64,000 bases of DNA. It comes from Blastocatellia bacterium (GTDB lineage Bacteria; Acidobacteriota; Blastocatellia; RBC074). Location of the stretch: the NCBI GenBank assembly GCA_035560235.1, contig DATMAG010000049.1:24300-88299 (forward strand), read 5' to 3'. Below are positions 6,702-60,173 of the stretch, one piece after another. Under the pieces are notes generated by a model that saw only the letters and a program-made list of their open reading frames with translations, ran no database searches and was not told the DNA's origin. Position 1 is the stretch's first letter, and each line of letters opens with the position of its first letter. Position numbers and translations under genes: made by a program.

Positions 6702-6707
6702 AGAATG

Positions 6708-6962
6708 GAACGCGGGTGAATCCGATGCGACTGAGCAATACAGATTCTGATCAGTCTTCATCCGTTGCATCAGTTTCATCGGCGTTCCATTTTCTGAAAA
6801 GCAATGGAACGCGGATTGAACGGATGCAACAGATAAACACAGATCAGCCCTGATCCGTCATATCAGTTTCATCCGTATTCCATTACCTTTCAGAAAATAG
6901 AACGCGGATGAAACTGATGATACAGATAAAAGACGGATCGGTGCTTATCCGTCGCATCCGTC
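6708..6962. repeat. three tandem palindromic units of about 85-90 bp (family A: AATGGAACGCG...CGCGTTCCATT)
   Basis: Each unit has terminal inverted repeats such as aatggaacgcgggtgaatccgatg ... catcagtttcatcggcgttccatt. Units start near 6712, 6803 and 6900. Related single copies lie at 37828-37912 and 54480-54605. Confidence 0.6.
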
Positions 6963-19191: not shown

Positions 19192-19218
19192 AGGACCGAC
19201 TCTCCTTATTATTGAACT

Positions 19219-19289
19219 TGAGATTACAGATTGCAGATTGTGATTGAGCCGGGCTGCAATCTGCAATCTCAAATCTGCAATTACGCAAT
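19219..19289. repeat. GATTGCAG-type palindromic element (agattgcagattg ... caatctgcaatct) between the rsmD stop and the coaD start
   Basis: An inverted repeat with 13-nt arms is read directly. It shares the motif seen at 661-705. Confidence 0.5.
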
Positions 19290-19844: not shown

Positions 19845-19850
19845 AGGAAC

Positions 19851-19940
19851 AGTGGTCAGTGGTCAGTGGTCAGTGACTGGTGGCTGACGGTCAGCAGAAG
19901 GACCAGTGTCCTCCGATCACCAGCCACTGACCACTGACTG
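19851..19940. repeat. GGTCAGTG-repeat hairpin (family C) at the convergent rsmD/galE junction
   Basis: cagtggtcagtggtcagtggtcagtgactggtg ... caccagccactgaccactgactg form a long imperfect inverted repeat. A related element lies at 39525-39612. Confidence 0.5.
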
Positions 19941-29444: not shown

Positions 29445-30097
29445 GTTTCTCCTCCTGGAAGTGGGTGAATCGTTAAAGCCAAGCAAGTTAATCAATCAAG
29501 TTAATCTGATGATGCCTGTACCTGCCGCGGACAAGCCTTACCGCATACAGCTTCTTATTGGGGGACTGTAAATAGTTGTCAATGATGACACTTTGATTTG
29601 ATTCGGCCAAAATCTATACGATAGGGTGTCTGGTGTCAATGTTAATCTCAACACACGTTTTGAGCGGCGGCTGAACACTTTCAGTGCAGTAATCGCACTT
29701 TCGCGCGGCCTGATGTGCGGATCAGTGAACCTGATCTTTTCCCCCTTCAGCCACTCTGAATCTGAGAGTCATTGCACCACCGATTTCAAAATTAATCGCA
29801 AAGGTGTCAATCCACGCAGCCCGGGGGGCCGGGCTGATTATCTGCACCGGGACTGTAAATTTCCGGCGCTTCAGGTAAGATTCCCGCGCACTGCCATCTG
29901 CGCTCATCGCGGCTTGAACACGCGGCTCAGGAACTCTGCCCATGTGGCGAATCGCTTCATTGTTCAGCGCCTCGCGCCTGCGCGGCTGCCGCAGGGAACA
30001 GAATTTTTCTGCGCGGACTGCTTTCATCCTGCCACGCCCGGCTGCAAAATACCGGTGCGCCTCCGGTCGCAAACATCGCAACATTCACACAACGCTT

Positions 30098-31336
30098 ATG
30101 AGACAGACTCTGCCCGGCACACTGAGACTCGCGTTTTCCCTTACCCTGCTTATGTCAACAGTCAACGCCCAGACGCCACCAGGTTTTGCGCAGGCTTACA
30201 GCGGCTTCAGGACTTTTTATAACCAGAAGCTGCGTCAGCACGGCATTGTCGGCAGCAGTTTTATGCTGATTCACGACAATCAGGTGATTGCCAGAGAGTT
30301 TTACGGCAGCGCGAACCTCGAAAAAAATCAGCCCGTTGACGAAGACACGATCTATCACTGGGCTTCGATTACCAAGACCTTCACCGGCATTGCGATTATG
30401 CAACTGCGTGATCGCGGGCTGCTCAAGCTCGATGATCCGATTATCAAATATGTACCGGAACTGAAGGAGGTTCACAATCCCTTCGGCCCGATGGAGCAGA
30501 TCACGATTCGTCATCTGCTGTCGCACAGCGCCGGGTTTCGTGACGCGACGTGGCCCTGGGGCGGCGACAGGGACTGGCATCCGCACGAACCGCAGCACTG
30601 GTCGCAACTCGTGGCAATGATGCCCTACACCGAAATTCTTTTTCAGCCGGGCACGAAATTCAGCTATTCAAATCCGGGCATCATCTTTCTGGGCCGCGTG
30701 ATTGAAACGCTGACGCGGGATGATTACGAAGTCTACATTGACAAGAACATCTTCAAGCCGCTCGAAATGTACCGCAGCTATTTCGACGCGACACCGTATC
30801 ACCTGCTCAGGCACCGCTCGCACAGTTACTGGCTCGAAGACGGCAAGCTGCGCCCGGCGCGCTTCGATGTGGACACCGGCATCACCGTTTCAAATGGCGG
30901 TCTGAACTCACCGCTGACGGATATGGTCAAATATCTCAACTTCCTGATGGGTTCACGCAACGCGCGGCAGCAGGCGATTTATGAAGGCGTGCTGAAACGC
31001 TCCTCGCTTGAGGAGATGTGGCAGCCGCAGGTCAGCATCGAACCGGCGGCAAAGGATGGAGAAAACCGCCGCGACGCAATGGGCCTGACTTATTTTATCG
31101 AAGACAACTTCGGGCAGCATTTCATCGGCCACAGCGGCGGACAGAACGGCTTCATCTCGCACTTTTATCTGCGCCCCGACGCGCGCACGGCTTACCTCGT
31201 CGCCTTCAATACGCACGCGATTCCGAAGGAGAAGGAACCCGACACCGGCCAGAACACGCGCGTGCTGGATCGTGAGATCAAGGACTATCTTTTCAAAAAC
31301 ATCTTCACATTGCTGGCCAAATCAAAGGCAGAATGA
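30098..31336 (+). CDS. serine hydrolase of the beta-lactamase / penicillin-binding-protein-like family (class C-like)
   Basis: The signal peptide is MRQTLPGTLRLAFSLTLLMSTVNA. The SxxK motif is in ...IYHWASITKTFTGIAIMQLRDRGLL..., and the YxN-like region is in ...HLLSHSAGF... Confidence 0.75.
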   Translation: MRQTLPGTLRLAFSLTLLMSTVNAQTPPGFAQAYSGFRTFYNQKLRQHGIVGSSFMLIHDNQVIAREFYGSANLEKNQPVDEDTIYHWASITKTFTGIAIMQLRDRGLLKLDDPIIKYVPELKEVHNPFGPMEQITIRHLLSHSAGFRDATWPWGGDRDWHPHEPQHWSQLVAMMPYTEILFQPGTKFSYSNPGIIFLGRVIETLTRDDYEVYIDKNIFKPLEMYRSYFDATPYHLLRHRSHSYWLEDGKLRPARFDVDTGITVSNGGLNSPLTDMVKYLNFLMGSRNARQQAIYEGVLKRSSLEEMWQPQVSIEPAAKDGENRRDAMGLTYFIEDNFGQHFIGHSGGQNGFISHFYLRPDARTAYLVAFNTHAIPKEKEPDTGQNTRVLDREIKDYLFKNIFTLLAKSKAE

Positions 31337-31442
31337 AGTATTCACCATCAACCCGGCATCGCGGAGCGTCTGGAGTGCTGCGGCCTGGCGCAGCTTTGCA
31401 GAATCAAAGTGCAGACAATGTAATGAATCAGGTTTCTCTGAG

Positions 31443-31527
31443 AGACGGTGTTCGGAGTCCCAGCTTTAGCTGGCTGGCTCTCGATTCAGACCCGACCAGC
31501 TAAAGCTGGGACTCCGAACACCGTCTC
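31443..31527. repeat. family B palindromic element (GACGGTGTTCGGAGTCCCAGCTTTAGCTGG loop CCAGCTAAAGCTGGGACTCCGAACACCGTC)
   Basis: A perfect inverted repeat of about 32 bp with a roughly 22-nt loop. Further copies lie at 47264-47343 and 57386-57470. Confidence 0.65.
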
Positions 31528-31732
31528 TTCAGAAAGGAGATTTCAATCACTATCCCGCTCTGGCCTGCTACAATTCAGTCTCTGCAGGCAGCGGTATCGA
31601 ATGAATACCAAAGCTGCGCCAGGCCGCAGCACTCCAGACGCTCCGCGATTTCAGGACGTGCAGCATCAAACAACCAACATCCCGCGCGCCGGGCGGCATC
31701 AGGTGCGCGGCCTGATCCTTCAGAAAATACCC

Positions 31733-32584
31733 ATGCTCAAATCAAATGATCGTCGTGACTTTATGAAACTCAGCGCCGGAGCCGCCGTTTCAGCGATGCT
31801 TCCGGCAATGCTCAACGCCGCGCCCAGATGGAAAAACATTCCCATTGCCACGCAGGCGTGGTGCGTGCGCAAGCAGATGGCCGGAGACATTCCGGGCACG
31901 CTCGCCGCCGTTGCCGCGCTGGGTTATCAGGGCATCGAACTTGAAAATGCCTTTGGCAAATCGGGGACGGAATGGCGCGGCTGGCTGGATGCGAACAAAC
32001 TGCGGGCCTGCGGGTTTCATCATTCGTGGCAGGAACTGCAGGGCGACCGGCTCAGACAGTCCATCGAATTCAATCAGGCGATTGGCAACAAAAACCTGAT
32101 CATTCGCTCGCTGCCGCGCGAGGTTTACACTTCAAAAGACCTGCTGCTGAAAACCGCCGAAGCGGTCAATAAAATTTCAGACAGTCTGAAACCGCATGGA
32201 ATGCGCGTCGGCTATCACAACCACACGCTCGACTTCAATAAAATTGACGGCGAATACTGGTGGAACCTTTTTGCCGATCAGACGCATAAAAACGTCATCC
32301 TGCAATTCGACACCGGCAATGCTTCTGAAATGTCCGGCGTCACGGTCACCGACTTTCTGAAGCGCAACAAGGGCCGCACCGTTTCAATGCACGTCAAGCC
32401 GTTCTCGCATCAGAAGCCGGACGCCTTTCTCGGTGATGACGAACTGGACTGGAAGCAGATTATGACAATCTGCGAAACGACCGGCGGCATCGAGTGGTAC
32501 ATCATCGAATACGAGCGCGAGGCCGTCCCGCCGCTCGAAGCGCTGAAGGCCAATCTCGAAAGATTTCGCCGGATGCGGGCTTGA
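31733..32584 (+). CDS. xylose-isomerase-like TIM-barrel sugar phosphate isomerase/epimerase, Tat-exported
   Basis: The Tat motif is MLKSNDRRDFMKLSAGAAVSAMLPAMLNAAP. The AP-endonuclease-2/xylose-isomerase-like barrel includes ...LGYQGIELENAFG... and ...HGMRVGYHNHTLDF... The upstream part of the 31448 ORF comes from the family B repeat and is not coding. Confidence 0.7.
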   Translation: MLKSNDRRDFMKLSAGAAVSAMLPAMLNAAPRWKNIPIATQAWCVRKQMAGDIPGTLAAVAALGYQGIELENAFGKSGTEWRGWLDANKLRACGFHHSWQELQGDRLRQSIEFNQAIGNKNLIIRSLPREVYTSKDLLLKTAEAVNKISDSLKPHGMRVGYHNHTLDFNKIDGEYWWNLFADQTHKNVILQFDTGNASEMSGVTVTDFLKRNKGRTVSMHVKPFSHQKPDAFLGDDELDWKQIMTICETTGGIEWYIIEYEREAVPPLEALKANLERFRRMRA

Positions 32585-37925: not shown

Positions 37926-39515
37926 TTACAGATTGTCTTTTGTCAGCACATTATCCACCAGCCGCCAGATGCCTCTGGTGTTTTCGTTGCGCAATTCAAC
38001 GGGCAACGCTTCCGGCGGGAAGTTCTGATACGACACCGGACGCGCGAAGCGTTTGATGGCATACGTGCCGACCGAAGTCGAACGCGCATCGGTCGTCGCC
38101 GGATACGGGCCGCCGTGCGTCATTGCGGGACAGACTTCAACGCCGGTCGGAAAGCCGTTGAAAACGAGCCGCCCGGCTTTGGTTTCGAGAATTGAAACCA
38201 GCCCGGCGTACTGCTGCAAATCTTCGGGCGTGGCGTGAATCGTTGCAGTCAGTGAACCGTGCAGGCTGCGGGCGATTTCTTCAAGCTGCTCGCGCGTGCC
38301 GCAACTGACGACGAGCGTTGACGGGCCGAAGACTTCTTCACTGAGTTGCGGACTGGCCAGAAACGTGGCGGCATCGGTCGCAAAGACTGTGGCCTGCGAT
38401 TGTGTCTTTGCAGGTTCGGGCGCAGTTTGTGCGCGCTGTGTCGCTACGCCTGAAGTTTCAGCAAAGCGGCTGACGCCTGATTCATAACTTTGCAGAATGC
38501 CCGGATGCAGCATCGTGGTCGGCGGCACTGCGGCAAACAGATTGTTGAGCCTGCCGATCAGTTGATCCATTCCGGCATCGGCCATTCCAAAGACCAGGCC
38601 GGGACAGGTGCAGAACTGACCTGCGCCGAGCGTGACTGAATTTTTCAGCCCTTCGGCAAAGGCTTCGCCACGCGACTGCAACGCGCCAGGCAGCACGAAG
38701 ACAGGATTGACGCTGCCCATTTCAGCGTAAACCGGAATCGGTTCAGGCCGCGCCGCCGCCGCATCGAACAAAGCCCGCCCGCCGCGCAGCGAACCGGTAA
38801 AGCCGACCGCCCTGATGGCCGGATGTTTGACGAGCGTCTGCCCGACTTCGACGCTGCCGCCGTGAACCATTGAAAAAACGCCTTCGGGCATGCCGGTTTC
38901 ATTCGCCGCTTTAATGACAGCGCGGGCGACCATTTCAGAAGTGCCGGGATGCGCGGGATGCGCCTTGACAACGACCGGGCATCCGGCAGCGAGCGCCGAA
39001 GCGGTGTCGCCGCCCGCGACTGAATAGGCAAAGGGAAAATTGCTCGCGCCAAAGACCGCGACCGGGCCAAGCGCAATCAGCATGCGCCGCAGATCGGGTT
39101 TCGGCAGCGGCTGACGATCAGCAATGGCGCGGTCAATCGTCGCTTCGACCCACGAACCTTCGCGGATTTCCGCCGCAAACAGACGCAACTGATTCATCGT
39201 GCGCCCGCGTTCGCCAGTCAGCCGGTCATAAGGCAGGCCGGTTTCAGCCTGGGCGCGATGAATCAGTTCATCGCCCTGCGCGAGCAGTTCATCCGCGATA
39301 GATTCAAGAAACGCGGCGCGCTCGTCGCTGCTCAGGCGACGGTAAGCATCGAACGCCTGAGCGGCGAGTTCGCAGGCGCGATTGATTTCGTCAGTCGTCG
39401 CTTCGTGAAAGACGGGGTCAAGTGACCGGCCAGCCGCCGGATCAAAAGCCTGAAAGGTTTGAGAACCTGATGATGAAGTTGAATTGCCGATGATCTGTTT
39501 GCCGTGTAGTTCCAT
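37926..39515 (-). CDS. NAD(P)-dependent aldehyde dehydrogenase, alpha-ketoglutarate-semialdehyde dehydrogenase-like
   Basis: The ALDH superfamily core reads ...GFTGSLRGGRALF..., ...PIPVYAEMGSVNPVFVL... and ...VTLGAGQFCTCPG... with a catalytic Cys context. The N-terminal region resembles KGSADH / 2,5-dioxovalerate dehydrogenases. Confidence 0.75.
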   Translation of the reverse strand: MELHGKQIIGNSTSSSGSQTFQAFDPAAGRSLDPVFHEATTDEINRACELAAQAFDAYRRLSSDERAAFLESIADELLAQGDELIHRAQAETGLPYDRLTGERGRTMNQLRLFAAEIREGSWVEATIDRAIADRQPLPKPDLRRMLIALGPVAVFGASNFPFAYSVAGGDTASALAAGCPVVVKAHPAHPGTSEMVARAVIKAANETGMPEGVFSMVHGGSVEVGQTLVKHPAIRAVGFTGSLRGGRALFDAAAARPEPIPVYAEMGSVNPVFVLPGALQSRGEAFAEGLKNSVTLGAGQFCTCPGLVFGMADAGMDQLIGRLNNLFAAVPPTTMLHPGILQSYESGVSRFAETSGVATQRAQTAPEPAKTQSQATVFATDAATFLASPQLSEEVFGPSTLVVSCGTREQLEEIARSLHGSLTATIHATPEDLQQYAGLVSILETKAGRLVFNGFPTGVEVCPAMTHGGPYPATTDARSTSVGTYAIKRFARPVSYQNFPPEALPVELRNENTRGIWRLVDNVLTKDNL

Positions 39516-39524
39516 AGTGATTGT

Positions 39525-39612
39525 CAGTTGTCCGTGGTCAGTTGTCAGTTGTTATCTGTGATGATGAAAAGTCTGAAAACAAATTACAACCGACCACCGA
39601 CAACTGACAACA
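39525..39612. repeat. family C hairpin (gtcagttgtccgtggtcagttgtcagttg ... caaccgaccaccgacaactgacaac) between the ALDH and inositol oxygenase genes
   Basis: A long inverted repeat is read directly. Confidence 0.5.
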
Positions 39613-39613
39613 A

Positions 39614-40459
39614 CTACCAGGCAATCTTTGGCGGGAAAAATTCAGCCACCAGTTCCTGATAGAACGGCCTCAATTCCTCAACATTCGGCTGCACAACTGA
39701 CTTGGTGTACAAGTCGTAAGGATTGAAGGCGCGTACCCATTTGAGCATTTCCCTGTCCTGTTCGTTCATCAGGTGCGTGTATTCGTTCTCGCGGTGAACC
39801 ACGTAAGCCGAATGATAGCGAATCATCCACAACGCTTCCTGCGGCAGATAATTTCTGACGACGTGATAAAGATATTCATCGTGGCCCCAGGTGAAATGCA
39901 CTTGATCAAGACCGCAGCCCGGTTCGTAAATCCCGCAGGGCGTGCTGAGCAGTGGATTCCGGCTGTCGGGATTGTCAGCAAAAAATTCTGAATAAACGAT
40001 CCTGTCTGAAAACGCGCAGCCGACCGGGTTGGTGTCACCGACCACGGCCCACTGCGGCTCGCCAAAGAGGCACAGCACCTTGCCGAGATCGTGAATCAGC
40101 CCGGTGAGAATGAACCAGCGCGGGTGTCCGTCGCGGCGAATGGCTTCGGCGGTCTGCAGCGCGTGCACGATCTGCGGCAGCGCCAGATCAGGGTCGCTGT
40201 CATCAACGACCTGATCGAGTTGTTCCATCGCCTCCCAGACGCTCATCTCAGCTTTTCGGAGCGGCGTGTACTCGGCTTTTTTTGCCAGCACGAAATCGAG
40301 CGTCTGCTGTGTGTGATGCTGTCGGTAAAGTTCACGGACACAGGCGCGGGCTTCGGCGGCGTAATCGCGGAACTGAGCTGGCTGTTTATCTTCATCAATG
40401 AGTGAGTGGGGAATGGGCGGGGCAACGGCAAACAAATCAGAACTGAGCGGATGTGACAT
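39614..40459 (-). CDS. myo-inositol oxygenase (MIOX, HD-domain di-iron oxygenase family)
   Basis: ...[29 protein letters not shown]..., ...[13 protein letters not shown]... and ...[43 protein letters not shown]...FFPPKIAW. The sequence is collinear with eukaryotic MIOX, including the C-terminal KIxW. I place the start at MSHPLSS (40459), within the longer 40654 ORF. Confidence 0.8.
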
Positions 40460-40599
40460 TAACCTGCATTGCTCCTTTGTGCGTGATCTCGGTTGAAAGT
40501 TCCGGCCTGACCGAATCAGCTGCTGGTCAAACCAGGCGGCGCGGCCATCATAATGCCGCCTTCTCAAAAAGTGAACAGTCGTCTGAAGAGCTGAGTCTG

Positions 40600-40688
40600 G
40601 CTGGAGCGCAGGCAGGCTGCCTGCCAGACTTCGATCAGGGGCTTCTTCCCGCAAGCCATGCAGGCAGGCTGCCTGCGCTCCAGCCAGA
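40600..40688. promoter_or_regulatory. 29-bp inverted repeat (ctggctggagcgcaggcaggctgcctgcc ... ggcaggcaggctgcctgcgctccagccag) in the divergent region between the inositol oxygenase and TonB-dependent receptor genes
   Basis: Read directly. The arms are separated by about 30 nt, and each arm is itself near-palindromic. Confidence 0.3.
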
Positions 40689-41025
40689 CAATGAAGTGCC
40701 CCTGGGCCGGATCTTGTTCATCCGGCCTGGTCGTGGTACTGTGCTGCCATCTTAAATACGGTAAGGTCATAACAAAGCACCAGCATTATCTTTCAGGAGA
40801 ATCAGCAGAGTCGTCATTCGAACTTTTCTGTTTTACACGCAGTTCCCCGACAGGGCCTGCTCTGCGCTGTAGCAGTTCACAGGATGAAAGGTAACGGCAG
40901 ACTTTTCCCCTGCCTTCAGTTCAGACTGTGAGCAGATAACCGCTCTTCAGTGCAGCCAGGACGCCGGTTTCGCTACCACAATCAACACTCATTCACCCCC
41001 TTCTCATTCAGGAAAGGAGTTACCC

Positions 41026-45848: not shown

Positions 45849-47237
45849 CTATCGCAGATAGCCCAGGTATTCAGGACTGCCTTCAACCAGCGCCGTCACA
45901 AGCTCGCGGGCAGGCTCCCATTCACCAACGAGCGGATAGGCAAGCAGCGCCTGGCGCGCCAGGGCAGCTGATTTTTCAATGGCAGCGCGAATCGTCAGGC
46001 GTTCGTATTCCTTCACCGCCTGCACCAGCCCGCGCACCTTTGCGGGCAGTTCACCGACCGCCAGGGCCTGCGGGCCGTGACGATCAACCAGGCACGGCAC
46101 TTCGACAACATCATCAGCTTCAAGCTCAGTGATCGCGCCGCGATTGCTCACGTTCAGCACGATACGCGCAGGCTGATCGCTCACGAGCGCCTTCATCACA
46201 TCGAGCGCGATGCGATGATAACCGGTCGCGGCGGCAAACGGGTCTTCGGTCTGCTCGCTGTCTTCGTGCAAAGCTGAACCGGCTTCGGCTTCGAGTTTGA
46301 GATATGAACCCGAACGGCGGCGCAGGTAGTTGCGATAAATCGTCAGCGCTTCAGCGTGACGTTCAGCATTGACCGCTTCACGAAGCAGATCAAAAAGACT
46401 GGCATTCAGGCTTTCAATCTCCTCGCCGCGACTCGCTCCGGCTGCGCGCTGATTGGCGAGGGCGCGCTGCTGACAGTAATAAAAAAACAGATACTCGCTC
46501 GGAATCATTCCGAGGCCGCGAATCATTTCAGGGTCGAACAGTTCAGCGTGATAAAGACTGCGCAGCGCCGCATCATCATTGAGCAGCCGTTCAGTCTCAT
46601 CACGCCCGCGCACGAGCACGCGCCGCACCCAGCCAAGATGATTCAGGCCGAAGTAATCACAGCGCACATCCGCGAGCGGTTCAGACAACGCTGCGGCAAT
46701 ACGCAGAAACATTTCGCTCGGCGTGTCGCAGATGCCGATGCTGCGCAGCCGCGTGTGCTGCGCCATCGCCTGCGCCACGAGTCCCGCCGGATTCGTGAAG
46801 CTGATAAACCACGCCTCGGGCGCGTGCTGTTCAATCACGCGGGCGTGCGCAAGCGCAACCGGAATCGTCCGCAACGCCTTTGCCAGTCCGCCGAGTCCGG
46901 TAGTCTCCTGCCCGGCAATGCCGTGTTCGATGGCAAGGCGTTCATCGCGCGCACGCGCCGCAATGCCGCCGACGCGAATGCTGTGCAGAATGAACTGCGC
47001 GCCCGCTGTGGCGTCCTTGATTCTTTCAGGCGTGCTGATGATAAATTCAGCGCGCTGCTGTCTGATGACTTCCCTGCCGAGCGCAGCCATCAGCGCGACC
47101 CGCTCGCGGTCAATGTCATACAGCGCCAGTTCACGAATGCCGAGCGTCGCCGCCGCCTGCGCCAGCCCGTGAATCAGCAGCGGCGTGCGCACACCGCCAC
47201 CGCCGATGAGAGTTACTTTGCAGTTGTCATTCATCAC
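45849..47237 (-). CDS. glycoside hydrolase family 4 (NAD+/Mn2+-dependent alpha-glucosidase / 6-phospho-glucosidase family)
   Basis: [25 protein letters not shown]... is the Rossmann region. ...[15 protein letters not shown]... and ...GICDTP... are GH4-like. Confidence 0.7.
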
Positions 47238-47263
47238 TCAATAAAGGGAGCAATCAGCAGCCG

Positions 47264-47343
47264 GTGTCTGGAGTTCCGGCTTTAGCTGGTCGGTCTGAAT
47301 TTACAGCATCGCCAGCTAAAGCCGGAACTCCAGACACCGGCTC
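47264..47343. repeat. family B palindromic element (ccggtgtctggagttccggctttagctgg ... ccagctaaagccggaactccagacaccgg)
   Basis: A variant of the 31443-31527 element. It creates the spurious N-terminus of track ORF 47264..47707. Confidence 0.6.
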
Positions 47344-47370
47344 GCTGAAAGACGAGTTTCAATCAGCGCC

Positions 47371-48675
47371 TCAACTCAGCTTCATTTCATCGAGTCTGAG
47401 CAGCGTGTGCAGCAGCACGTTTGCGCCGCTGGTGATGTCTTCCGGTTTTGAAAATTCGCGTGGTGAATGGCTGATGCCGCCGACGCTGGGCACAAAGATC
47501 ATGCCGACCGGGCCGAGGCGGGCGACTTCCTGCGCGTCGTGGCCTGCGCCGCTGGGCATCGGCTTTGTCGTCAGGCCAAGCTGCCGGGCCGATTCAGCAA
47601 TCACGCGGCGAATGCGTTCATCGGTCGGCGCAGGCGCGGTGTCGTTGGTCTGCCTGAAATCGAATTTTGTCCCGGTGGCCTGTTCGATCTGTTTCACTTC
47701 GGCCTGAATCTTCGCAAACAGCATTCTGATTTTCGCGGCGTCGAGGTCGCGCAGTTCAAGGCTCGTCACGACTTTGCCTGGAATGACATTGTAGGCGCCC
47801 GGCTGCGCCTGAATCTTTCCAACCGTGCCGACCTGCCGACCCGGCATCGAAGTCACAGTGCGATTGACGGCTTCAATGAATTTCGCAGCAGCGAGCAATG
47901 CGTCGCGGCGCTGATTCATCGGCGTAGTCCCGGCGTGATTGGCGAAGCCTTCAATCGTCACGTCCCACCAGTTGATGCCGACAATGCCTTCGACCACGCC
48001 GATGTTGATTTTCTCTGCTTCGAGAATGCCGCCCTGTTCGATGTGCAGTTCAAGGTAAGCCGCAATGTCGCCGCGTTTGCGCACCGCGCCTGCGAGTTTG
48101 TCGGGATCGCCGCCGATGAACCTGATGCCGTCACGAATCGTTTTGCGACTGTTCGTAACCAGGTTCAGCTCCCTTTCAGTCAGCCCGGCGCTGATCGCAT
48201 GACTGCCGATGGTTCCGCCTTCCTCGTTCTGAAAGATGATGACTTCGAGCGGGTGACGCAGCGCGACGTTGTTTTCAGCGAGCGTCTGCGCAACTTCAAT
48301 CGCGCCCATCGAACCGACATCACCATCGTAATTGCCGCCTTCAGGCACCGAATCAATGTGCGAGCCGATGAGGAGCAGCGCAAGCGACGAATCGCGGCCC
48401 GCGCGACGACCGACGATGTTGCCTGCCGCATCAATGCTCACTTCAAGCTTCGCGGCGCGCATCAGGTTCATCGCATATTCGCGGCCTTTCAGGTCAGCAT
48501 CGCTGTAAGCCAGGCGACTGACGCCGCCCTGCGGGTTCCGGCCAAATTGCGACAGTTCTTTCAGGTGTTCATTGAACCGTTCGCCATTGACGCGCAGTTT
48601 CGGAAGCGATTGCGGCAGACCAGCGACAATGGCCGCAGACAAAAGGTGCAGATTGAATTCACGACGATTCATCAT
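47371..48675 (-). CDS. M20-family Zn-dependent amidohydrolase (allantoate amidohydrolase / N-carbamoyl-L-amino-acid hydrolase family), Tat-exported
   Basis: The Tat signal is MMNRREFNLHLLSAAIVAGLP. The metal-binding regions read ...LLIGSHIDSVPEGGNYDGDVG..., ...ELHIEQGG... and ...GAGHDAQ... Confidence 0.75.
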   Translation of the reverse strand: MMNRREFNLHLLSAAIVAGLPQSLPKLRVNGERFNEHLKELSQFGRNPQGGVSRLAYSDADLKGREYAMNLMRAAKLEVSIDAAGNIVGRRAGRDSSLALLLIGSHIDSVPEGGNYDGDVGSMGAIEVAQTLAENNVALRHPLEVIIFQNEEGGTIGSHAISAGLTERELNLVTNSRKTIRDGIRFIGGDPDKLAGAVRKRGDIAAYLELHIEQGGILEAEKINIGVVEGIVGINWWDVTIEGFANHAGTTPMNQRRDALLAAAKFIEAVNRTVTSMPGRQVGTVGKIQAQPGAYNVIPGKVVTSLELRDLDAAKIRMLFAKIQAEVKQIEQATGTKFDFRQTNDTAPAPTDERIRRVIAESARQLGLTTKPMPSGAGHDAQEVARLGPVGMIFVPSVGGISHSPREFSKPEDITSGANVLLHTLLRLDEMKLS

Positions 48676-51004: not shown

Positions 51005-51078
51005 TCCACGAGGCACACAAAGATTCACAAAGCAGAATCCGGCTGATCTTCGTGAATCTTCGTGTGCCTTCGTGGATG
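51005..51078. terminator. family D hairpin (atccacgaggcacacaaagattcac ... gtgaatcttcgtgtgccttcgtggat) between the permease start region and the 3-prime end of the TonB-dependent receptor gene
   Basis: A roughly 25-bp imperfect inverted repeat is read directly. It shares CACGAAGG/CCTTCGTG arms with 60026-60173. Confidence 0.45.
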
Positions 51079-54479: not shown

Positions 54480-54605
54480 CCGCTCCGTGAAAGGAACGCA
54501 GCGATGTCAGTCAGTTCATCCCGGCAAGGACAGGTCAGGAATGGAACGCAGATGAAGCAGAGACAACGGATCGAAACAGACCCGCGATGACCCGCGTTCC
54601 ATTCT
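54480..54605. repeat. family A palindromic element (aatggaacgcagatgaagcag ... gacccgcgttccatt) plus a partial upstream copy
   Basis: Its termini match the 6708-6962 units. A partial copy (ggaacgcagcgatg) lies at 54490-54503. Confidence 0.5.
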
Positions 54606-54613
54606 CTGCGCTG

Positions 54614-57292
54614 CTATTTTGGCTGCTTCTTCAGACTGATGATGTTGGCGAATAAACGATAGCCGCCCGGCACGCCCGCTGGCAGTTGCCGGTAAAAGGC
54701 ATAAGCCGCATAGGTGAATGTGCCTTTGCCATATGGCGCAAAGAGCAGGCCGCCGCGCTGCGGTTTCTGTTCGCGGTCATGGCATTCAAGCAATGGCTTG
54801 TAACGCTCGTCCCACGTCGTCATCCACTTCGAGCCGCGCTCTTCAACCCAGCCGTCAAAGTCAGCCGCCGTGATTTTGTTCGGCCAGTTGAAGATCGGAT
54901 TTGATGGTTCAAGAATCGTGACCTTTGCCTCCTCTTCAGAAACCTCTTCGGCGCGCGGCGTCAGTTTGTACGGGTACGGGCCGTAAGGCGCGGCGTCGAA
55001 TTCCTGCGTCTGGTACTGGTAAATCAGATTGCCGCCGCGTTCGGCGTAATCGAGCAGGCGACGGCTGTAAGCCTTCAGATCATCGCGCACGGCTGTCGCG
55101 CGAATGCCGACGATGATGGCGTCGTACTGATCCAGACTGCCGCTCGCCAGGGCGTTTTCATCAAGCATCGTGACTTTGACGCCGATCTGTTCGAGAGCTT
55201 TCGGCACTTCATCACCGACGCCCATGACGTAACCGACCGTCAGATTCGGCGCGACTTTGACATCAATGCCGCGAATGCTCATCGTCGCCGGGCGATACAA
55301 ATGGCGCGGCTCGTTATCGCGGTGCGCGATCACCTGATAACCTTCGGTGTATTCGCGCCCGGCGTATTCGGCAACGGCCTGCACCTTGTATTCTTCATTC
55401 GCCACAACGCGCGGAATCGCCACCCTGAAAGTGAAGTTGCTGACTTCGCCTTCGTGTGTGAAGTTGAAGGTGTGTTCGGCAGGCGTCGCCTTCCAGCCCT
55501 GCGGCAGCCGCAGTTTCACTTTGCCTGTGGCATTGCCTTTGACGTTGCTGGCGACGCTGACGCTGGCGGTGTAAGACGATGCAGAACCGACAGGAATCGC
55601 ACCGACACGCGGCGAAAGCTGAACGCTGATGGCCGGAGCCACGGTCAGCAGCCGTCGCTGTTCGCCCCAGGGCCGATCAATAAAAACAGTCTGCGCCGGT
55701 TGCGTCAGCGTGAAACTGACGCCGTCAACTTTGTAACTGAACGCGCCAGTCACGTCAGGCGGAGCGAAGGGCAAACTGAGATATTCCGGTTTGTTGATCT
55801 GATAGATGTGGTCGCGCAGTTCGTTTTCGCGTGACCAGTAAGGCCGCGTGTATTCGGCATCCGACGGCACGGTCAGTTCAAACTGGCGGCGGGCGCGTTC
55901 GTTGTATCCGAGCGGTTTGACTTCATCGCGCTTTGTGCCGACGCTCCAGCCTTTCGGCGTGCGCAGCGCGAGGTCAGCGGGTTCGACTCTGACCTGGCTG
56001 CGATTGACGACAGTTGCCGTCAGCGTGAACTGCTGACCTGGAATGGCGACATTGAATGTTTCGCGGGGCTGAAAGAACTGCTGACTACCTTCGGCTGCGC
56101 CGCCCGAAGGATCAACGAGAACTTCCATCACGAGGCCCAGAGCCTTGTTCATCGCATCGTTGAATTCGCGCTCCTTGTTGCCGAGCAGGAACAGCAGATG
56201 GTCTTTGTTCGCGGCTTCAATCTGCGAGCCGCGCACTTTTTCAATCAGCGAACGCGTGGTCTTCAGTCCGGCGGCGAGTTCGGGCGCGACCGTCCAGGGC
56301 CTGAGCGCGTCGAATTTTTTCAGCGCCGCTTCGACGCTGCTGCTGATGGCACTGAGTTCAGCCGTGATGTCGGTTGAACCGGAAAGTTTTGCAAGTCCGA
56401 TGATCGTTGTGTCAATGCCGTCAAAGATGCTCTTTTCGCTCTCGGCTTTCGGCAGCGTGCTTTCGACAAGCTGCCACGATGACCTGGCTGAACCGGGCGG
56501 CACGCGCAGACCGCCTGCGCCCTGCGAGCGTTGATGGCTCAGTCCGTCACGCGCGATTTCACGATACGATTTGCCGGTGAGCGGATCGTATTCACCCACA
56601 TCAACTCTGACAGTTGCGGGTTCATTGTCGCGCACGCTGAGGTAATGCTTTTTGACCTGCCACGGGCGCAGCCCTTCCCTGATCTGTTCGGGAAACATCT
56701 GCGGATCGGCGGCGGCCTTGAAGACTTCGTAACTCATCAGCCCGGCGGTCTGATGATTGCCGTGACCGTCACGCGGCTTGCCGTGAAAGCGGGCGATGAT
56801 GATGTCAGGCCGGTACATTCGCACGGCGCGCACGACATCGCGCAGCACCACGTCTTTGCCCCAGTGTTCGAGCGTTTCATCCATCCGCTTGGAAAAACCG
56901 AAATCGGTTACGCGGGTGAACATCTGATCCACGCCGTAATAACGCCCGGCGGCAAGCAGTTCTTCAGTCCGCACCAGACCGAGCGCGTCATAAAGTTCAG
57001 GCCCGACCAGATTGGCTCCGCCTTCGCCACGATTGAGCGTGAGCAGGCCGGTGCGCACGCCTTCGCGGCGCGTGAGCCACGTGAGCATCGCGCCGTCTTC
57101 ATCATCCGGGTGCGCCGTCGTGTGCAGCACCGTCACCGTCGAACGCAGCCGCAGCAGCGCCCGCCACGCGGCAGCCGCGCCCTTGTTTTCGGCTACGTCC
57201 TGCACCTGAGCGCGAATCGTCACCGAATTATTCACCACGCCCGCCAGCAGCAGACACCCGGCGAGCGACAGGGCTGTGAGCTTCCTTGTCAT
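54614..57292 (-). CDS. large secreted PIG-L-family deacetylase with C-terminal glutamine-amidotransferase-class-1-like (ThuA-like) domain
   Basis: The signal peptide is followed by ...VLHTTAHPDDEDGAM...TLNRGEGGAN... (PIG-L). A central beta-rich region follows. The C-terminus reads ...DAIIVGIRATAVRDDLKAYSRRLLDYAERGGNLIYQYQ... The protein is 892 aa. Confidence 0.55.
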   Translation of the reverse strand: MTRKLTALSLAGCLLLAGVVNNSVTIRAQVQDVAENKGAAAAWRALLRLRSTVTVLHTTAHPDDEDGAMLTWLTRREGVRTGLLTLNRGEGGANLVGPELYDALGLVRTEELLAAGRYYGVDQMFTRVTDFGFSKRMDETLEHWGKDVVLRDVVRAVRMYRPDIIIARFHGKPRDGHGNHQTAGLMSYEVFKAAADPQMFPEQIREGLRPWQVKKHYLSVRDNEPATVRVDVGEYDPLTGKSYREIARDGLSHQRSQGAGGLRVPPGSARSSWQLVESTLPKAESEKSIFDGIDTTIIGLAKLSGSTDITAELSAISSSVEAALKKFDALRPWTVAPELAAGLKTTRSLIEKVRGSQIEAANKDHLLFLLGNKEREFNDAMNKALGLVMEVLVDPSGGAAEGSQQFFQPRETFNVAIPGQQFTLTATVVNRSQVRVEPADLALRTPKGWSVGTKRDEVKPLGYNERARRQFELTVPSDAEYTRPYWSRENELRDHIYQINKPEYLSLPFAPPDVTGAFSYKVDGVSFTLTQPAQTVFIDRPWGEQRRLLTVAPAISVQLSPRVGAIPVGSASSYTASVSVASNVKGNATGKVKLRLPQGWKATPAEHTFNFTHEGEVSNFTFRVAIPRVVANEEYKVQAVAEYAGREYTEGYQVIAHRDNEPRHLYRPATMSIRGIDVKVAPNLTVGYVMGVGDEVPKALEQIGVKVTMLDENALASGSLDQYDAIIVGIRATAVRDDLKAYSRRLLDYAERGGNLIYQYQTQEFDAAPYGPYPYKLTPRAEEVSEEEAKVTILEPSNPIFNWPNKITAADFDGWVEERGSKWMTTWDERYKPLLECHDREQKPQRGGLLFAPYGKGTFTYAAYAFYRQLPAGVPGGYRLFANIISLKKQPK

Positions 57293-57385
57293 CGTCTCCT
57301 CCAGTTGATGATGTTTCTGAAAAAAATTGCCGCGTTAAATCAAAGCAGCCGGAATCGGGACACCGCCTGCACTCTCATTTCTGGC

Positions 57386-57470
57386 GAGACGGTGTTCGGA
57401 GTTCCAGCTTCAGCTGGCTGGTCTGAGTTCACAATTCAGCCAGCTGAAGCTGGAACTCCGAACACCGTCC
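57386..57470. repeat. family B palindromic element (gacggtgttcggagttccagcttcagctgg ... ccagctgaagctggaactccgaacaccgtc)
   Basis: Third copy of the family. It lies in the roughly 480-bp leader between the PIG-L gene and the Nramp gene. Confidence 0.6.
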
Positions 57471-57769
57471 TGCAGCGTGACCTGATTCACTCAATGTCTC
57501 GATCCTGTGTGCCCTGATTTAATGAAAAGAATACCCGAACACTGCTGTGATAATGATGCCGCTACTTTAGGGCGCTCGCGGAGAGTCGTCAATGCCTGTG
57601 CCGGGGCGCGTCATTTTCCGTTGTTGAATCAGAGGCCGTGCGAGTTTGAGGACGATGATTTATGATGCCCGGGCTTTGAGTTCCATCTGACGCGGTTTCA
57701 AATCAATGATTCAATGCAGCAGCAAACGAACACGGCCATCAGGCCGCTGTTCATTTTCCAACACATCCG

Positions 57770-59128
57770 GTGAAGACACACGACCCATACCAGCTCAGTC
57801 CCGAAGACATTTCTGAGCCGCCGCCATCGTTCTTTGGCGCGTTGCGGCGCATCGGCCCCGGCGTCGTGCTGGCTGCGGCCATCGTCGGTTCAGGAGAACT
57901 GATTGCCACGACGACCCTCGGCGCGCAGGTTGGTTATGCCGCGCTCTGGATCATTCTGCTCAGTTGCATCGTCAAGCCGGTCATTCAGTCAGAACTTGGT
58001 CGGTACACGATTGCGAGCGGCGAAACGGGGCTGGCCGGACTCAACGGGGTGCCGGGGCCGCGCTGGCGCGTCAACTGGATCGTCTGGGGCTGGGCGCTGA
58101 TGACGCTGATGACGCTGACGCAGATTGGCGCAATGTACAGCGGCGTGGCGCAGACGATGAACCTGATCGTGCCTTCGGTGCCGGTCAAAGCGTGGGCGCT
58201 GATCTTTGTCGCGCTGACGCTCGCACTGCTGCTGGGCGGCGGTTATGAACGCATCGAACGGCTGGCAGTGGTCAAGGTCGGGCTGTTCACGATGCTGACG
58301 GTGATGGCCGCGCTGCTGCTGGCGCGCAGGCCGCAATACTTTTCGCTCAGAGAAGTCTGGCACGGACTCAGTTTCAATTTGCCCGGCGAAGGCATTTCGA
58401 CGGCGCTCGCGGTCTTTGGCATTACGGGCGTCGGCGCGGCGGAGTTGTTTATGTATCCGTACTGGTGCGTCGAAAAAGGCTATGCGCGATTCACCGGCAA
58501 GCGCGAAGCGACCGATGAATGGCGGAGCCGCGCGCGCGGCTGGGTGCGGGTGATGCAGGTGGACATTGGCGCTTCGATGGTGATTTACACGGTTGCGACG
58601 GTGGCGTTTTACCTCCTCGGCGCGGGCGTGCTGCACGGCATGGGACTTGTACCGGAAGGCACGGCGATGATTCGCACGCTCTCGAATATTTACACGCAGA
58701 CCTTTGGCGAATGGGCCGTGTGGCTCTTTTATGCGGGCGCGATTGTGACGCTGTACGGGACAATCTTTGCGGCGACGGCAGCGAATGCGCGGGTCTTTGC
58801 CGATCTGTTCAGGCTGATGGGAATTTTTGCAGCGCACGATTACGCGCGCCGCTCGTGGTTTCGCAATCTCTTTATCATCATTCTCAACGTCACACCGATG
58901 CTGCTGGTCTTTCGCAACATTTCGCCGGTTAGCCTGGTCAGAGCGGGCGGCATTGCTCAGGCAATCATGCTGCCGGTGCTTGGCTTCGGCGCCATTTACC
59001 TGCGCCATCGCCGCCTGCCGCAGGAGATTGCGCCATCACGCCGGACGACGATTTCACTCTGGATCGCTTCGCTGATTATGCTTGGGCTGATGAGTTATTA
59101 TGCGCTGCTGCTGTTGCGGCAGATGTAA
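57770..59128 (+). CDS. Nramp-related divalent metal cation transporter (variant lacking the canonical DPGN motif)
   Basis: About 11 TM helices. The N-terminus reads ...GPGVVLAAAIVGSGELIATTTLGAQVGYAALWIILL... The segment ...FGITGVGAAELFMYPYWCVEKGYA... aligns with the Nramp TM6 MPH region (here YPYW). Confidence 0.55.
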   Translation: MKTHDPYQLSPEDISEPPPSFFGALRRIGPGVVLAAAIVGSGELIATTTLGAQVGYAALWIILLSCIVKPVIQSELGRYTIASGETGLAGLNGVPGPRWRVNWIVWGWALMTLMTLTQIGAMYSGVAQTMNLIVPSVPVKAWALIFVALTLALLLGGGYERIERLAVVKVGLFTMLTVMAALLLARRPQYFSLREVWHGLSFNLPGEGISTALAVFGITGVGAAELFMYPYWCVEKGYARFTGKREATDEWRSRARGWVRVMQVDIGASMVIYTVATVAFYLLGAGVLHGMGLVPEGTAMIRTLSNIYTQTFGEWAVWLFYAGAIVTLYGTIFAATAANARVFADLFRLMGIFAAHDYARRSWFRNLFIIILNVTPMLLVFRNISPVSLVRAGGIAQAIMLPVLGFGAIYLRHRRLPQEIAPSRRTTISLWIASLIMLGLMSYYALLLLRQM

Positions 59129-60007: not shown

Positions 60008-60025
60008 AGAGTGGCAAATCCTTTT

Positions 60026-60173
60026 CACCACGAAGGGCGCGAAGATGACGAAGAAAAACAGGGAGAAGAAGAAATAATGGGGGAGAGGCAGTCCGGATTT
60101 TCCCTGTTCTCCTGGTTTCCTGTCTCCTCTTCCTTACTTCGTGATCTTCGCGCCCTTCGTGGTGCAACTCTTT
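60026..60173. terminator. family D nested hairpin (caccacgaagggcgcgaagatgacgaag ... cttcgtgatcttcgcgcccttcgtggtg) between the convergent SDR and amidase genes
   Basis: The outer inverted repeat has 28-bp arms. Inner repeats (cagggagaa/ttctcctgg, ggagaggcag/ctgtctcctc) lie in the loop. Confidence 0.5.

Follow-up and report, generated by a model that had tools for sequence, protein, structure and literature searches.

Intergenic hairpins in a Blastocatellia bacterium as probable REPINs of an acidobacterial REP-RAYT system

To our knowledge, work on REPIN-RAYT systems has been confined almost entirely to Proteobacteria and Cyanobacteria. A REPIN is a small mobile repeat without coding capacity, made of two inverted REP units and disseminated by a dedicated tyrosine transposase (RAYT). 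REPINs, or BIMEs, and their RAYT (TnpA-REP) have been described in Pseudomonas fluorescens SBW25 and E. coli (PMC3116915, PMC3337134, PMC6006769), and the REPtron arrangement has been described for RAYTs (PMC6006769, PMC3733652). The TnpA-Y1 subclass 2.8 of Quentin et al. [quoted passage not shown] For Acidobacteria, Di Nocera et al. (2013) described TIRtrons with their TIRYT genes, in which long TIRs are unrelated to the tagged REPs, in the acidobacteriial genera Terriglobus, Koribacter, Acidobacterium, and Granulicella (PMC3733652). The same study described CGTC-tagged REPs, which have stems of 8–9 bp with A/T first pairs, a CCA tail, and no associated transposase (PMC3733652). In other Acidobacteria, earlier surveys described no more than tyrosine transposases flanked by TIRs and enzymes of class 3, and the literature searched contains no description of REPs in Blastocatellia.

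The window analyzed here, that is, the whole stretch of 64,000 nucleotides from a Blastocatellia bacterium (contig DATMAG010000049.1; G+C, 57.8%), carries three copies of a hairpin-forming element, family B. These three elements are likely to be REPINs, inverted REP doublets of a REP-RAYT system in Blastocatellia/Pyrinomonadaceae-type Acidobacteriota. The REP-like element had been one candidate role in the original prediction, and it is the one favored here, since the arms proved to be REP units, with covarying stems, of the family that flanks RAYT genes.

Family B shares with the described REPINs and BIMEs the inverted doublet of short palindromic units folding into a hairpin, the extragenic and multi-copy distribution, the concordance of the arms, the lack of a target-site duplication, and a cognate HUH/Y1 gene that has these units on its flanks, as a REPtron, at what may be a single chromosomal locus, here in a related acidobacterium. 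In contrast, the foot is GGAG, in the place where canonical REPs have GT[AG]G, and sister families carry GTAG (L030/L053) or TGAG (L190/L191). The small hairpin has only 5 bp and a 4-nt loop and follows a long conserved 5′ tail, so that the doublet has a nearly perfect stem of more than 30 bp. A lineage-specific extended form of 185 nt and the host phylum, Acidobacteriota, also differ from the described systems. By most of the defining features, family B is a REPIN, the departures being the GGAG foot and the RAYT, which was seen in a related organism.

The resemblance to TIRtrons lies in acidobacterial tyrosine-transposase genes with inverted repeats on both sides, repeats that also make up dimer families of moderate abundance, whereas the short foot-plus-hairpin units in direct arrays found here set the two apart, judging from the published description of TIRtrons. 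In family B, the outer end of the long stem reads ...CACCGTC and so carries a CGTC, like the CGTC-tagged REPs. Membership in that class was ruled out by stem length, composition, and tail, and because the CGTC-REP features fit nowhere in family B, the terminal CGTC is taken to be coincidental.

An arm-pattern search of the window allowing up to three mismatches returned six arm matches arranged as three inverted pairs, whereas 100 dinucleotide-preserving shuffles returned none (Table 1). All three hairpin copies of the original prediction were thus found, and its near-perfect stems of about 30 bp are borne out by arms of 31–41 nt that are 93–100% complementary. Copy 2 starts at 47259 rather than at the predicted 47264. 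The predicted length of about 85 bp fits the central hairpins, but the conserved element is longer, about 175–187 nt in copies 1 and 3, and the loop, given as 20–25 nt, gives way to spacers of 16–22 nt when extra pairs are counted. The RNA hairpins of the three copies were predicted at −76 to −87 kcal/mol (z, −12.7 to −16.9, on either strand), and copy 3 folded as ssDNA at −59.6 kcal/mol (z, −10).

Table 1. Coordinates of the family-B copies in the window, of their neighboring genes, and of a MITE-like element nested in family-B copies of other contigs
Feature	Coordinates	Strand	Details
Copy 1, extended REPIN	31405..31579	− relative to family profile	nhmmer profile positions 2–180, 134 bits
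Copy 1, outer-left flank	31576–31527		
Copy 1, central hairpin	31441..31528		arms 31441–31481 / 31488–31528, 41 nt, 93% complementary (inverted-repeat finder)
Copy 1, REP unit cores	31454–31473, 31496–31515	+, −	GGAGTCCCAGCTTTAGCTGG
Beta-lactamase-family gene (neighbor of copy 1)	29942–31336	+	
Xylose-isomerase-like TIM-barrel gene (neighbor of copy 1)	31733 (probable start)	+	
Copy 2, outer flanks weak	47254..47384		nhmmer 82.8/78.5 bits on the two strands
Copy 2, central hairpin	47259..47342		arms 47259–47289 / 47312–47342, 31 nt, 100% complementary (inverted-repeat finder)
Copy 2, REP unit cores	47270–47289, 47312–47331	+, −	GGAGTTCCGGCTTTAGCTGG
GH4 gene (neighbor of copy 2)	45849–47234	−	
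M20 peptidase gene (neighbor of copy 2)	47371–48675	−	
Copy 3, full-length extended REPIN	57337..57523	+	~187 nt; nhmmer profile positions 2–187, 177.6 bits; termini TTAAATCA...TGATTTAA
Copy 3, outer flanks	57337–57387, 57473–57523		
Copy 3, central hairpin	57387..57470		arms 57388–57420 / 57437–57469, 33 nt, 100% complementary (inverted-repeat finder)
Copy 3, REP unit cores	57398–57417, 57440–57459	+, −	GGAGTTCCAGCTTCAGCTGG
PIG-L/NPCBM gene (neighbor of copy 3)	54614–57292	−	divergent from the Nramp gene
Nramp gene (neighbor of copy 3)	57770–59128	+	divergent from the PIG-L/NPCBM gene
MITE-like element in L007	3560–3750		
MITE-like element in L013	4325–4495		
MITE-like element in L025	2925–3075		
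MITE-like element in L027	7800–7960		
MITE-like element in L037	6465–6640		

The differences between the copies are compensated across the stem, as had been proposed. CTTTAGC/GCTAAAG in one copy stands against CTTCAGC/GCTGAAG in another, and GGAGTT/AACTCC against GGAGTC/GACTCC. In copy 2, TTC/GAA is replaced by TCT/AGA and CCAG/CTGG by CCGG/CCGG; this TCT/CCGG variant has a G.T or A.C pair in its small inner stem.

The genes flanking the three copies match their earlier description. The stop codon of the M20 gene overlaps the flank of copy 2, at profile positions 21–23, and the start of the GH4 gene lies about 25 nt from the hairpin. The spurious peptide that the element had been said to create, VFGVPALAG...PAKAGTPNTVS, was found in ORF 31448–32584. 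This longest ORF begins within the hairpin of copy 1; the true xylose-isomerase-like protein probably starts at 31733, where MLKSNDRRDFMKLSAGAA resembles a twin-arginine signal.

One arm of the element constitutes a REP unit, which consists of a 5′ tail, (GAC)GGTGTTY, the foot GGAG, one or two bases (T-N), and a 5-bp stem closed by a TTYA loop (CCAGC-TTTA-GCTGG). As ssDNA, the unit folds at −4.1 to −5.6 kcal/mol. Five variants of the stem were seen in the metagenome loci, namely CCAGC/GCTGG, which is that of the window family, CCGGC/GCCGG, CCGCC/GGCGG, CCGAC/GTCGG, and CCAAC/GTTGG. Covariation was counted at the two stem pairs that the search pattern leaves free, where the variants are AG/CT, GG/CC, GC/GC, GA/TC, and AA/TT. 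In 217 distinct units from genomes and metagenomes, 419 of the 434 free stem pairs were Watson-Crick, compared to 232 ± 9.6 in shuffles (maximum, 264).

All complete copies are plus-then-minus inverted pairs, which amount to 45–48 doublets in total. The only unpaired arms were those cut by a contig end and one extra arm beside a pair in L026. The two units face each other with their feet outward, across a spacer of 15–29 nt that varies in both length and sequence, so that a single strand of DNA or RNA can fold into a hairpin of more than 30 bp. Between the two arms of family B, 260 of 270 free positions were matched (shuffles, 218 ± 4), and non-consensus bases were shared by the two arms in 33 cases and confined to one of them in 10. 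Both the unit stems and the arms of the doublet therefore covary, in agreement with the proposed selection on pairing. Four mismatched copies, inspected by eye for an asymmetry of G.U versus A.C that would point to selection at the RNA level and too few to count, gave a mixed picture.

In doublets that combine two different stems, the small hairpins are kept whereas the long-range pairing is broken. Such doublets were seen in metagenome loci (L095, L098, L114, L133, L159, and L169), and the same behavior was observed in genome loci (L002, L015, L052, and L057). The survival of the small hairpins when the long-range pairing is broken indicates that the conserved module is the unit, a footed stem-loop of REP type, and that two such units in inverted orientation make up the 85-bp element.

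In the lineage of the window, the repeat has grown to about 185–190 nt, as defined by the profile, through imperfectly palindromic outer flanks, CTGAATC...GATTCAG. These flanks are absent from the metagenome loci. No outer flanks were seen without the central doublet; since they always accompany it, a separate element was ruled out. The RAYT genes examined have no counterpart of the outer flanks beside them, which counts against the REPIN reading.

Over kilobases, the window is about 91% identical to contigs of the Blastocatellia MAG STL-ACI6 (JAXLQP01; L013) and about 90% identical to a MAG labeled Heliobacteriaceae (L034). On this evidence, the latter would be a close relative of the window organism despite its label. 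Its assembly, CAYWDW01 (L034, L035, L039, L042, and L051), carries the family-B REPIN. With about 90% DNA identity to the window and an acidobacterial REPIN, the taxonomic label looks wrong or the bin contaminated.

The genome scan covered one genome per species with a one-arm pattern that placed no constraint on the second arm or on six positions of the arm. Of the 59 loci returned, at least 37, by the exact one-arm pattern, are in STL-ACI6. The others come from further Blastocatellia and Acidobacteriota MAGs and from the MAG labeled Heliobacteriaceae; one match in a Polyangiales MAG (L040), which lacks a partner arm, was dismissed as a chance match. A relaxed pattern gave at least 120 loci in metagenomes. 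A pattern search across genomes, which had been suggested as a check, thus shows that the family extends well beyond the three loci of the window. Many short-read contigs end within or beside a REP arm (L016, L018, L030, L034, L039, L041, L046, and L183–L187), and Logan contigs begin 67 nt upstream of the RAYT gene, indicating that the repeats break assemblies.

Neither the 64-kb window nor the 59 loci of the genome scan contain a RAYT gene detectable by tblastn with an E. coli RAYT query of approximate sequence. In the loci of the metagenome scan, tblastn and inspection of ORFs revealed 200-aa HUH/Y1 ORFs beside the units in L069, L116, L149, and L167. In L167, three direct units, GTTTGGAGTTCCAGCTTTAGCTGG, stand upstream of the ORF (1989–2570) with a period of 28 nt, one inverted unit follows the ORF, and these flanking units are exactly the arm core of the window family. 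The layout recurs, in a conserved neighborhood, in the NCBI assemblies GCA_022841865.1 and GCA_001464665.1 (L180–L182). A REPtron, with three direct units and one inverted GGAGTTCCAGCTTTAGCTGG unit around a Y1 ORF, is thus present in a related acidobacterium, which shares the REPIN with the window and otherwise shows about 60% amino-acid identity to it in one shared gene. The ORFs in L069, L116, and L149 are also flanked by units, in this case sister units of the same superfamily.

The 200-aa protein matched Pfam Y1_Tnp at 24.2 bits (cutoff, 23) and the NCBIfam model of the REP-associated tyrosine transposase (REP_Tyr_transpos) with an E value of 3.7e-18 over profile positions 8–146 of 146. 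At 65.8 bits, the latter match falls short of the equivalog cutoff (80), and the IS200 match scored 17 bits. A profile of 23 homologues had the E. coli TnpA-REP (4ER8) as its only significant PDB match (E, 2.8e-6), with the HUH and Y motifs aligned. Residues N86, H87, and H89 (NHYH/NHFH) and N146, Y147, and N151 (NYVxxN) are invariant in the homologues. By its HUH and Y motifs and these matches, the protein is of RAYT type, closer to TnpA-REP than to IS200 TnpA.

The acidobacterial proteins carry PNHYH, VWH, and NYVLHNPVHHGY, as well as HSPPH in the N-terminal region. Their length of 200 aa, NHYH, WH, Y---NP, and the HSPPH N-terminus are like those of TnpA-Y1 subclass 2.8, which they resemble by motifs and length, whereas the foot of their REPs is GGAG and not GT[AG]G. 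Public genomes and metagenomes contain 571 homologues at E values below 1e-10. Among the 120 homologues listed, nearly all have 185–231 aa, and the named sources are Pyrinomonadaceae or Acidobacteria. Homologues P0033, P0007, and P0067 are flanked by arrays of sister units, which reach seven direct units on the upstream side and six inverted ones on the downstream side. The neighborhood of RAYT P0001 is constant in all the long contigs returned, in the order sigma-70/anti-sigma ... RAYT ... DCD, peptidase S58.

The gene contexts of the 42 classifiable copies are tandem in 28 cases, convergent in 11, and divergent in 3, so that 39 of the 42 have one or more genes ending toward them; this placement, which avoids divergent promoter regions, is typical of REPs. 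The copies with a clear polarity showed no bias of orientation relative to transcription (5 in the same direction versus 7 in the opposite). The original prediction had placed the copies in 5′ leaders, a description that fails for the family as a whole, given that only the three divergent copies have no gene upstream of them and that neither orientation is preferred. The boundaries of the 12 full-length copies were free of direct repeats reaching 4 nt, and thus no target-site duplication was found; the boundary repeats average 1.08 nt, compared to 1.37 nt in controls.

Orthologous loci were compared for window copies 2 and 3. Copy 3 is absent from the orthologous intergenic site of L034 (about 90% identical), where 46 nt replace 230 nt, and a comparison with related genomes therefore does reveal an empty site, as the prediction had envisaged. 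Conversely, the site downstream of the PIG-L gene is occupied by a family-B REPIN in L034 and by a different palindrome in the window. Copy 2 is present at the orthologous locus of L013, with a second element nested in it; the arms differ from those of the window at four positions, each of which is changed on both arms. These differences would have arisen either in place, by compensatory evolution, or when another copy took over the site. Copy 1 and the copy in L008 are near-identical, with one compensated pair of difference; orthology was ruled out, since the match extends over only about 200 nt and the flanking genes differ.

Of the approximately 35 genes that reach into an extended element, eight end at the terminal TGA of that element, at profile positions 1–3 or 183–185 (e.g., L006 375, L023 2486, L043 3365, L048 7342, L019 2275, L022 7832, L045 3704, and L058 3465). 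Within the first 36 nt of the extended consensus, each of the three frames contains a TGA. The stops may reflect a target preference, insertions tolerated at the ends of genes, or chance. In L180/L181/L182 (5680–5755; GCA_022841865.1 and GCA_001464665.1), a REPIN lies in frame within a peptidase S58 (DmpA-like) gene, to which it adds about 25 residues (VRSSSFSWPDSKTEITPAKAGTPNTA) compared to the STL-ACI6 homologue in L025.

Other mobile elements and repeats were observed in and around family B. A palindromic, MITE-like element of about 170 nt was found at the same position in five independent family-B copies (Table 1). Its core, CCCCGTAGTAACGAATTyATTCGTT...AACGAATrAATTCGTTACTACGGGG, is placed within the AGCTTTAGCT core of one REP unit, and the identical position in five copies suggests that the REP hairpin is a specific insertion target for this element, which is absent from the 64-kb window. 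Another palindromic family, AATGGAACGC...GCGTTCCATT, occurs in the window at 54535–54605, the intergenic site where L034 carries its family-B REPIN, and in a cluster at 6704–6930, which is 73–77% similar to L017 509–793. Further intergenic inverted repeats with arms of 20–42 nt lie in the window at 1324–1437, 19218–19276, 19850–19938, 39515–39626, 40595–40689, 51011–51069, and 60023–60167. Short tandem motifs, GTCAGTG and CAGATTG among them, make up several of these repeats, none of which is related in sequence to family B.

The hairpins might instead be host RNA or transcription signals, such as bidirectional terminators, attenuators, mRNA stabilizers, or RNase III sites, selected for the hairpin and repeated only secondarily. 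The RNA hairpins are very stable on both strands, the copies lie in transcribed intergenic regions and mostly downstream of genes, the compensated changes preserve pairing, and the REPs of E. coli stabilize upstream mRNA. However, the stems are not followed by a U-tract, either in the plus-strand sequences (CTTCAGAAAGG, CTCGCTGAAAG, and CTGCAGCGTG) or on the minus strand, which has no T-run, and the terminator-like sites near copy 3 fall elsewhere than at the stem, so that a classical intrinsic terminator is unlikely. Rfam gave no match at the gathering score in the whole window, and at a relaxed E value the matches of copy 3 were confined to miRNA-precursor models from eukaryotes, generic to hairpins and in every case below gathering. 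In addition, the spacer varies in length and sequence, both orientations are equally used, a copy can be present or absent next to the same genes at orthologous loci, and one copy lies in frame within a gene of a relative. Since a host signal would also leave unexplained why the unit flanks RAYT genes, we consider this explanation improbable, although the hairpin may have side-effects on RNA. Still less probable is a binding site on double-stranded DNA for a dimeric regulator or a nucleoid protein, to which we assign hardly any likelihood. The copies are intergenic, and the arm core, CCAGCTTTAGCTGG, is itself palindromic, as such a site would be; but the stem bases covary freely through five variants, which fits hairpin pairing better than base-specific protein contacts, the inner palindrome is broken in copy 2 while the long-range pairing persists there, and dozens of copies adjoin unrelated genes.

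A conventional MITE, that is, a deletion derivative of an IS with a DDE transposase, whose arms are terminal inverted repeats and which is mobilized in trans with a target-site duplication, would have a similar architecture and would account for the presence/absence variation among related genomes. At one locus of STL-ACI6 (L003, 1329–2690), the arms do flank an IS256-family IS encoding a 417-aa Mutator-type transposase. This IS lies in the spacer of a family-B REPIN, of which both outer flanks are kept, and inside the arms it is bounded by 26-bp inverted repeats of its own (GGTGTCAGAAnnTTTGTGTAAACGGA), indicating that it is an insertion into the REPIN spacer and ruling it out as the parent element. 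Moreover, the target-site duplication expected of a MITE was not found, a single unit with its own covarying small hairpin is conserved, which is unexpected for a TIR, and the identical unit flanks HUH/Y1 genes in direct arrays. A MITE origin is therefore very unlikely.

For the favored REP-RAYT system, a mechanism can be proposed by analogy with the E. coli TnpA-REP and with IS200/IS605. The RAYT, a HUH/Y1 tyrosine transposase encoded in single copy between units of this type, would recognize the foot and the small hairpin on ssDNA, and would cut and rejoin the DNA, spreading doublets to new intergenic sites without a target-site duplication. Selection would then leave the surviving doublets mainly downstream of genes. 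Once transcribed, a hairpin of about −80 kcal/mol could stabilize the upstream mRNA, offer a site for processing, or tune expression across the M20-GH4 junction.

A broader reading, which we put forward only tentatively and which may well prove too strong, is that of an undescribed, phylum-wide REP-RAYT lineage of soil Acidobacteriota. It would have HYH-type RAYTs of 200 aa, a GGAG/TGAG foot replacing GT[AG]G and hence a shifted guide recognition, a fast turnover of REPINs between genomes that are about 90% identical, and perhaps co-option by the host, in the form of TGA stops donated to upstream genes, in-frame tolerance, and landing pads for mobile elements.

Overall, Blastocatellia-type Acidobacteriota appear to have a clean and abundant REPIN-RAYT system, with hundreds of related units and 571 RAYT homologues. 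The element type is a known one, now found in a little-studied soil phylum, and general concepts are unchanged. For annotation, the hairpins make spurious ORFs, shift predicted start codons, as in ORF 31448–32584, and break short-read assemblies. The hairpin between the M20 and GH4 genes may affect the expression of that operon, and the variant GGAG foot, together with the naturally covarying stems, provides a test set for how RAYTs read the guide tetranucleotide.
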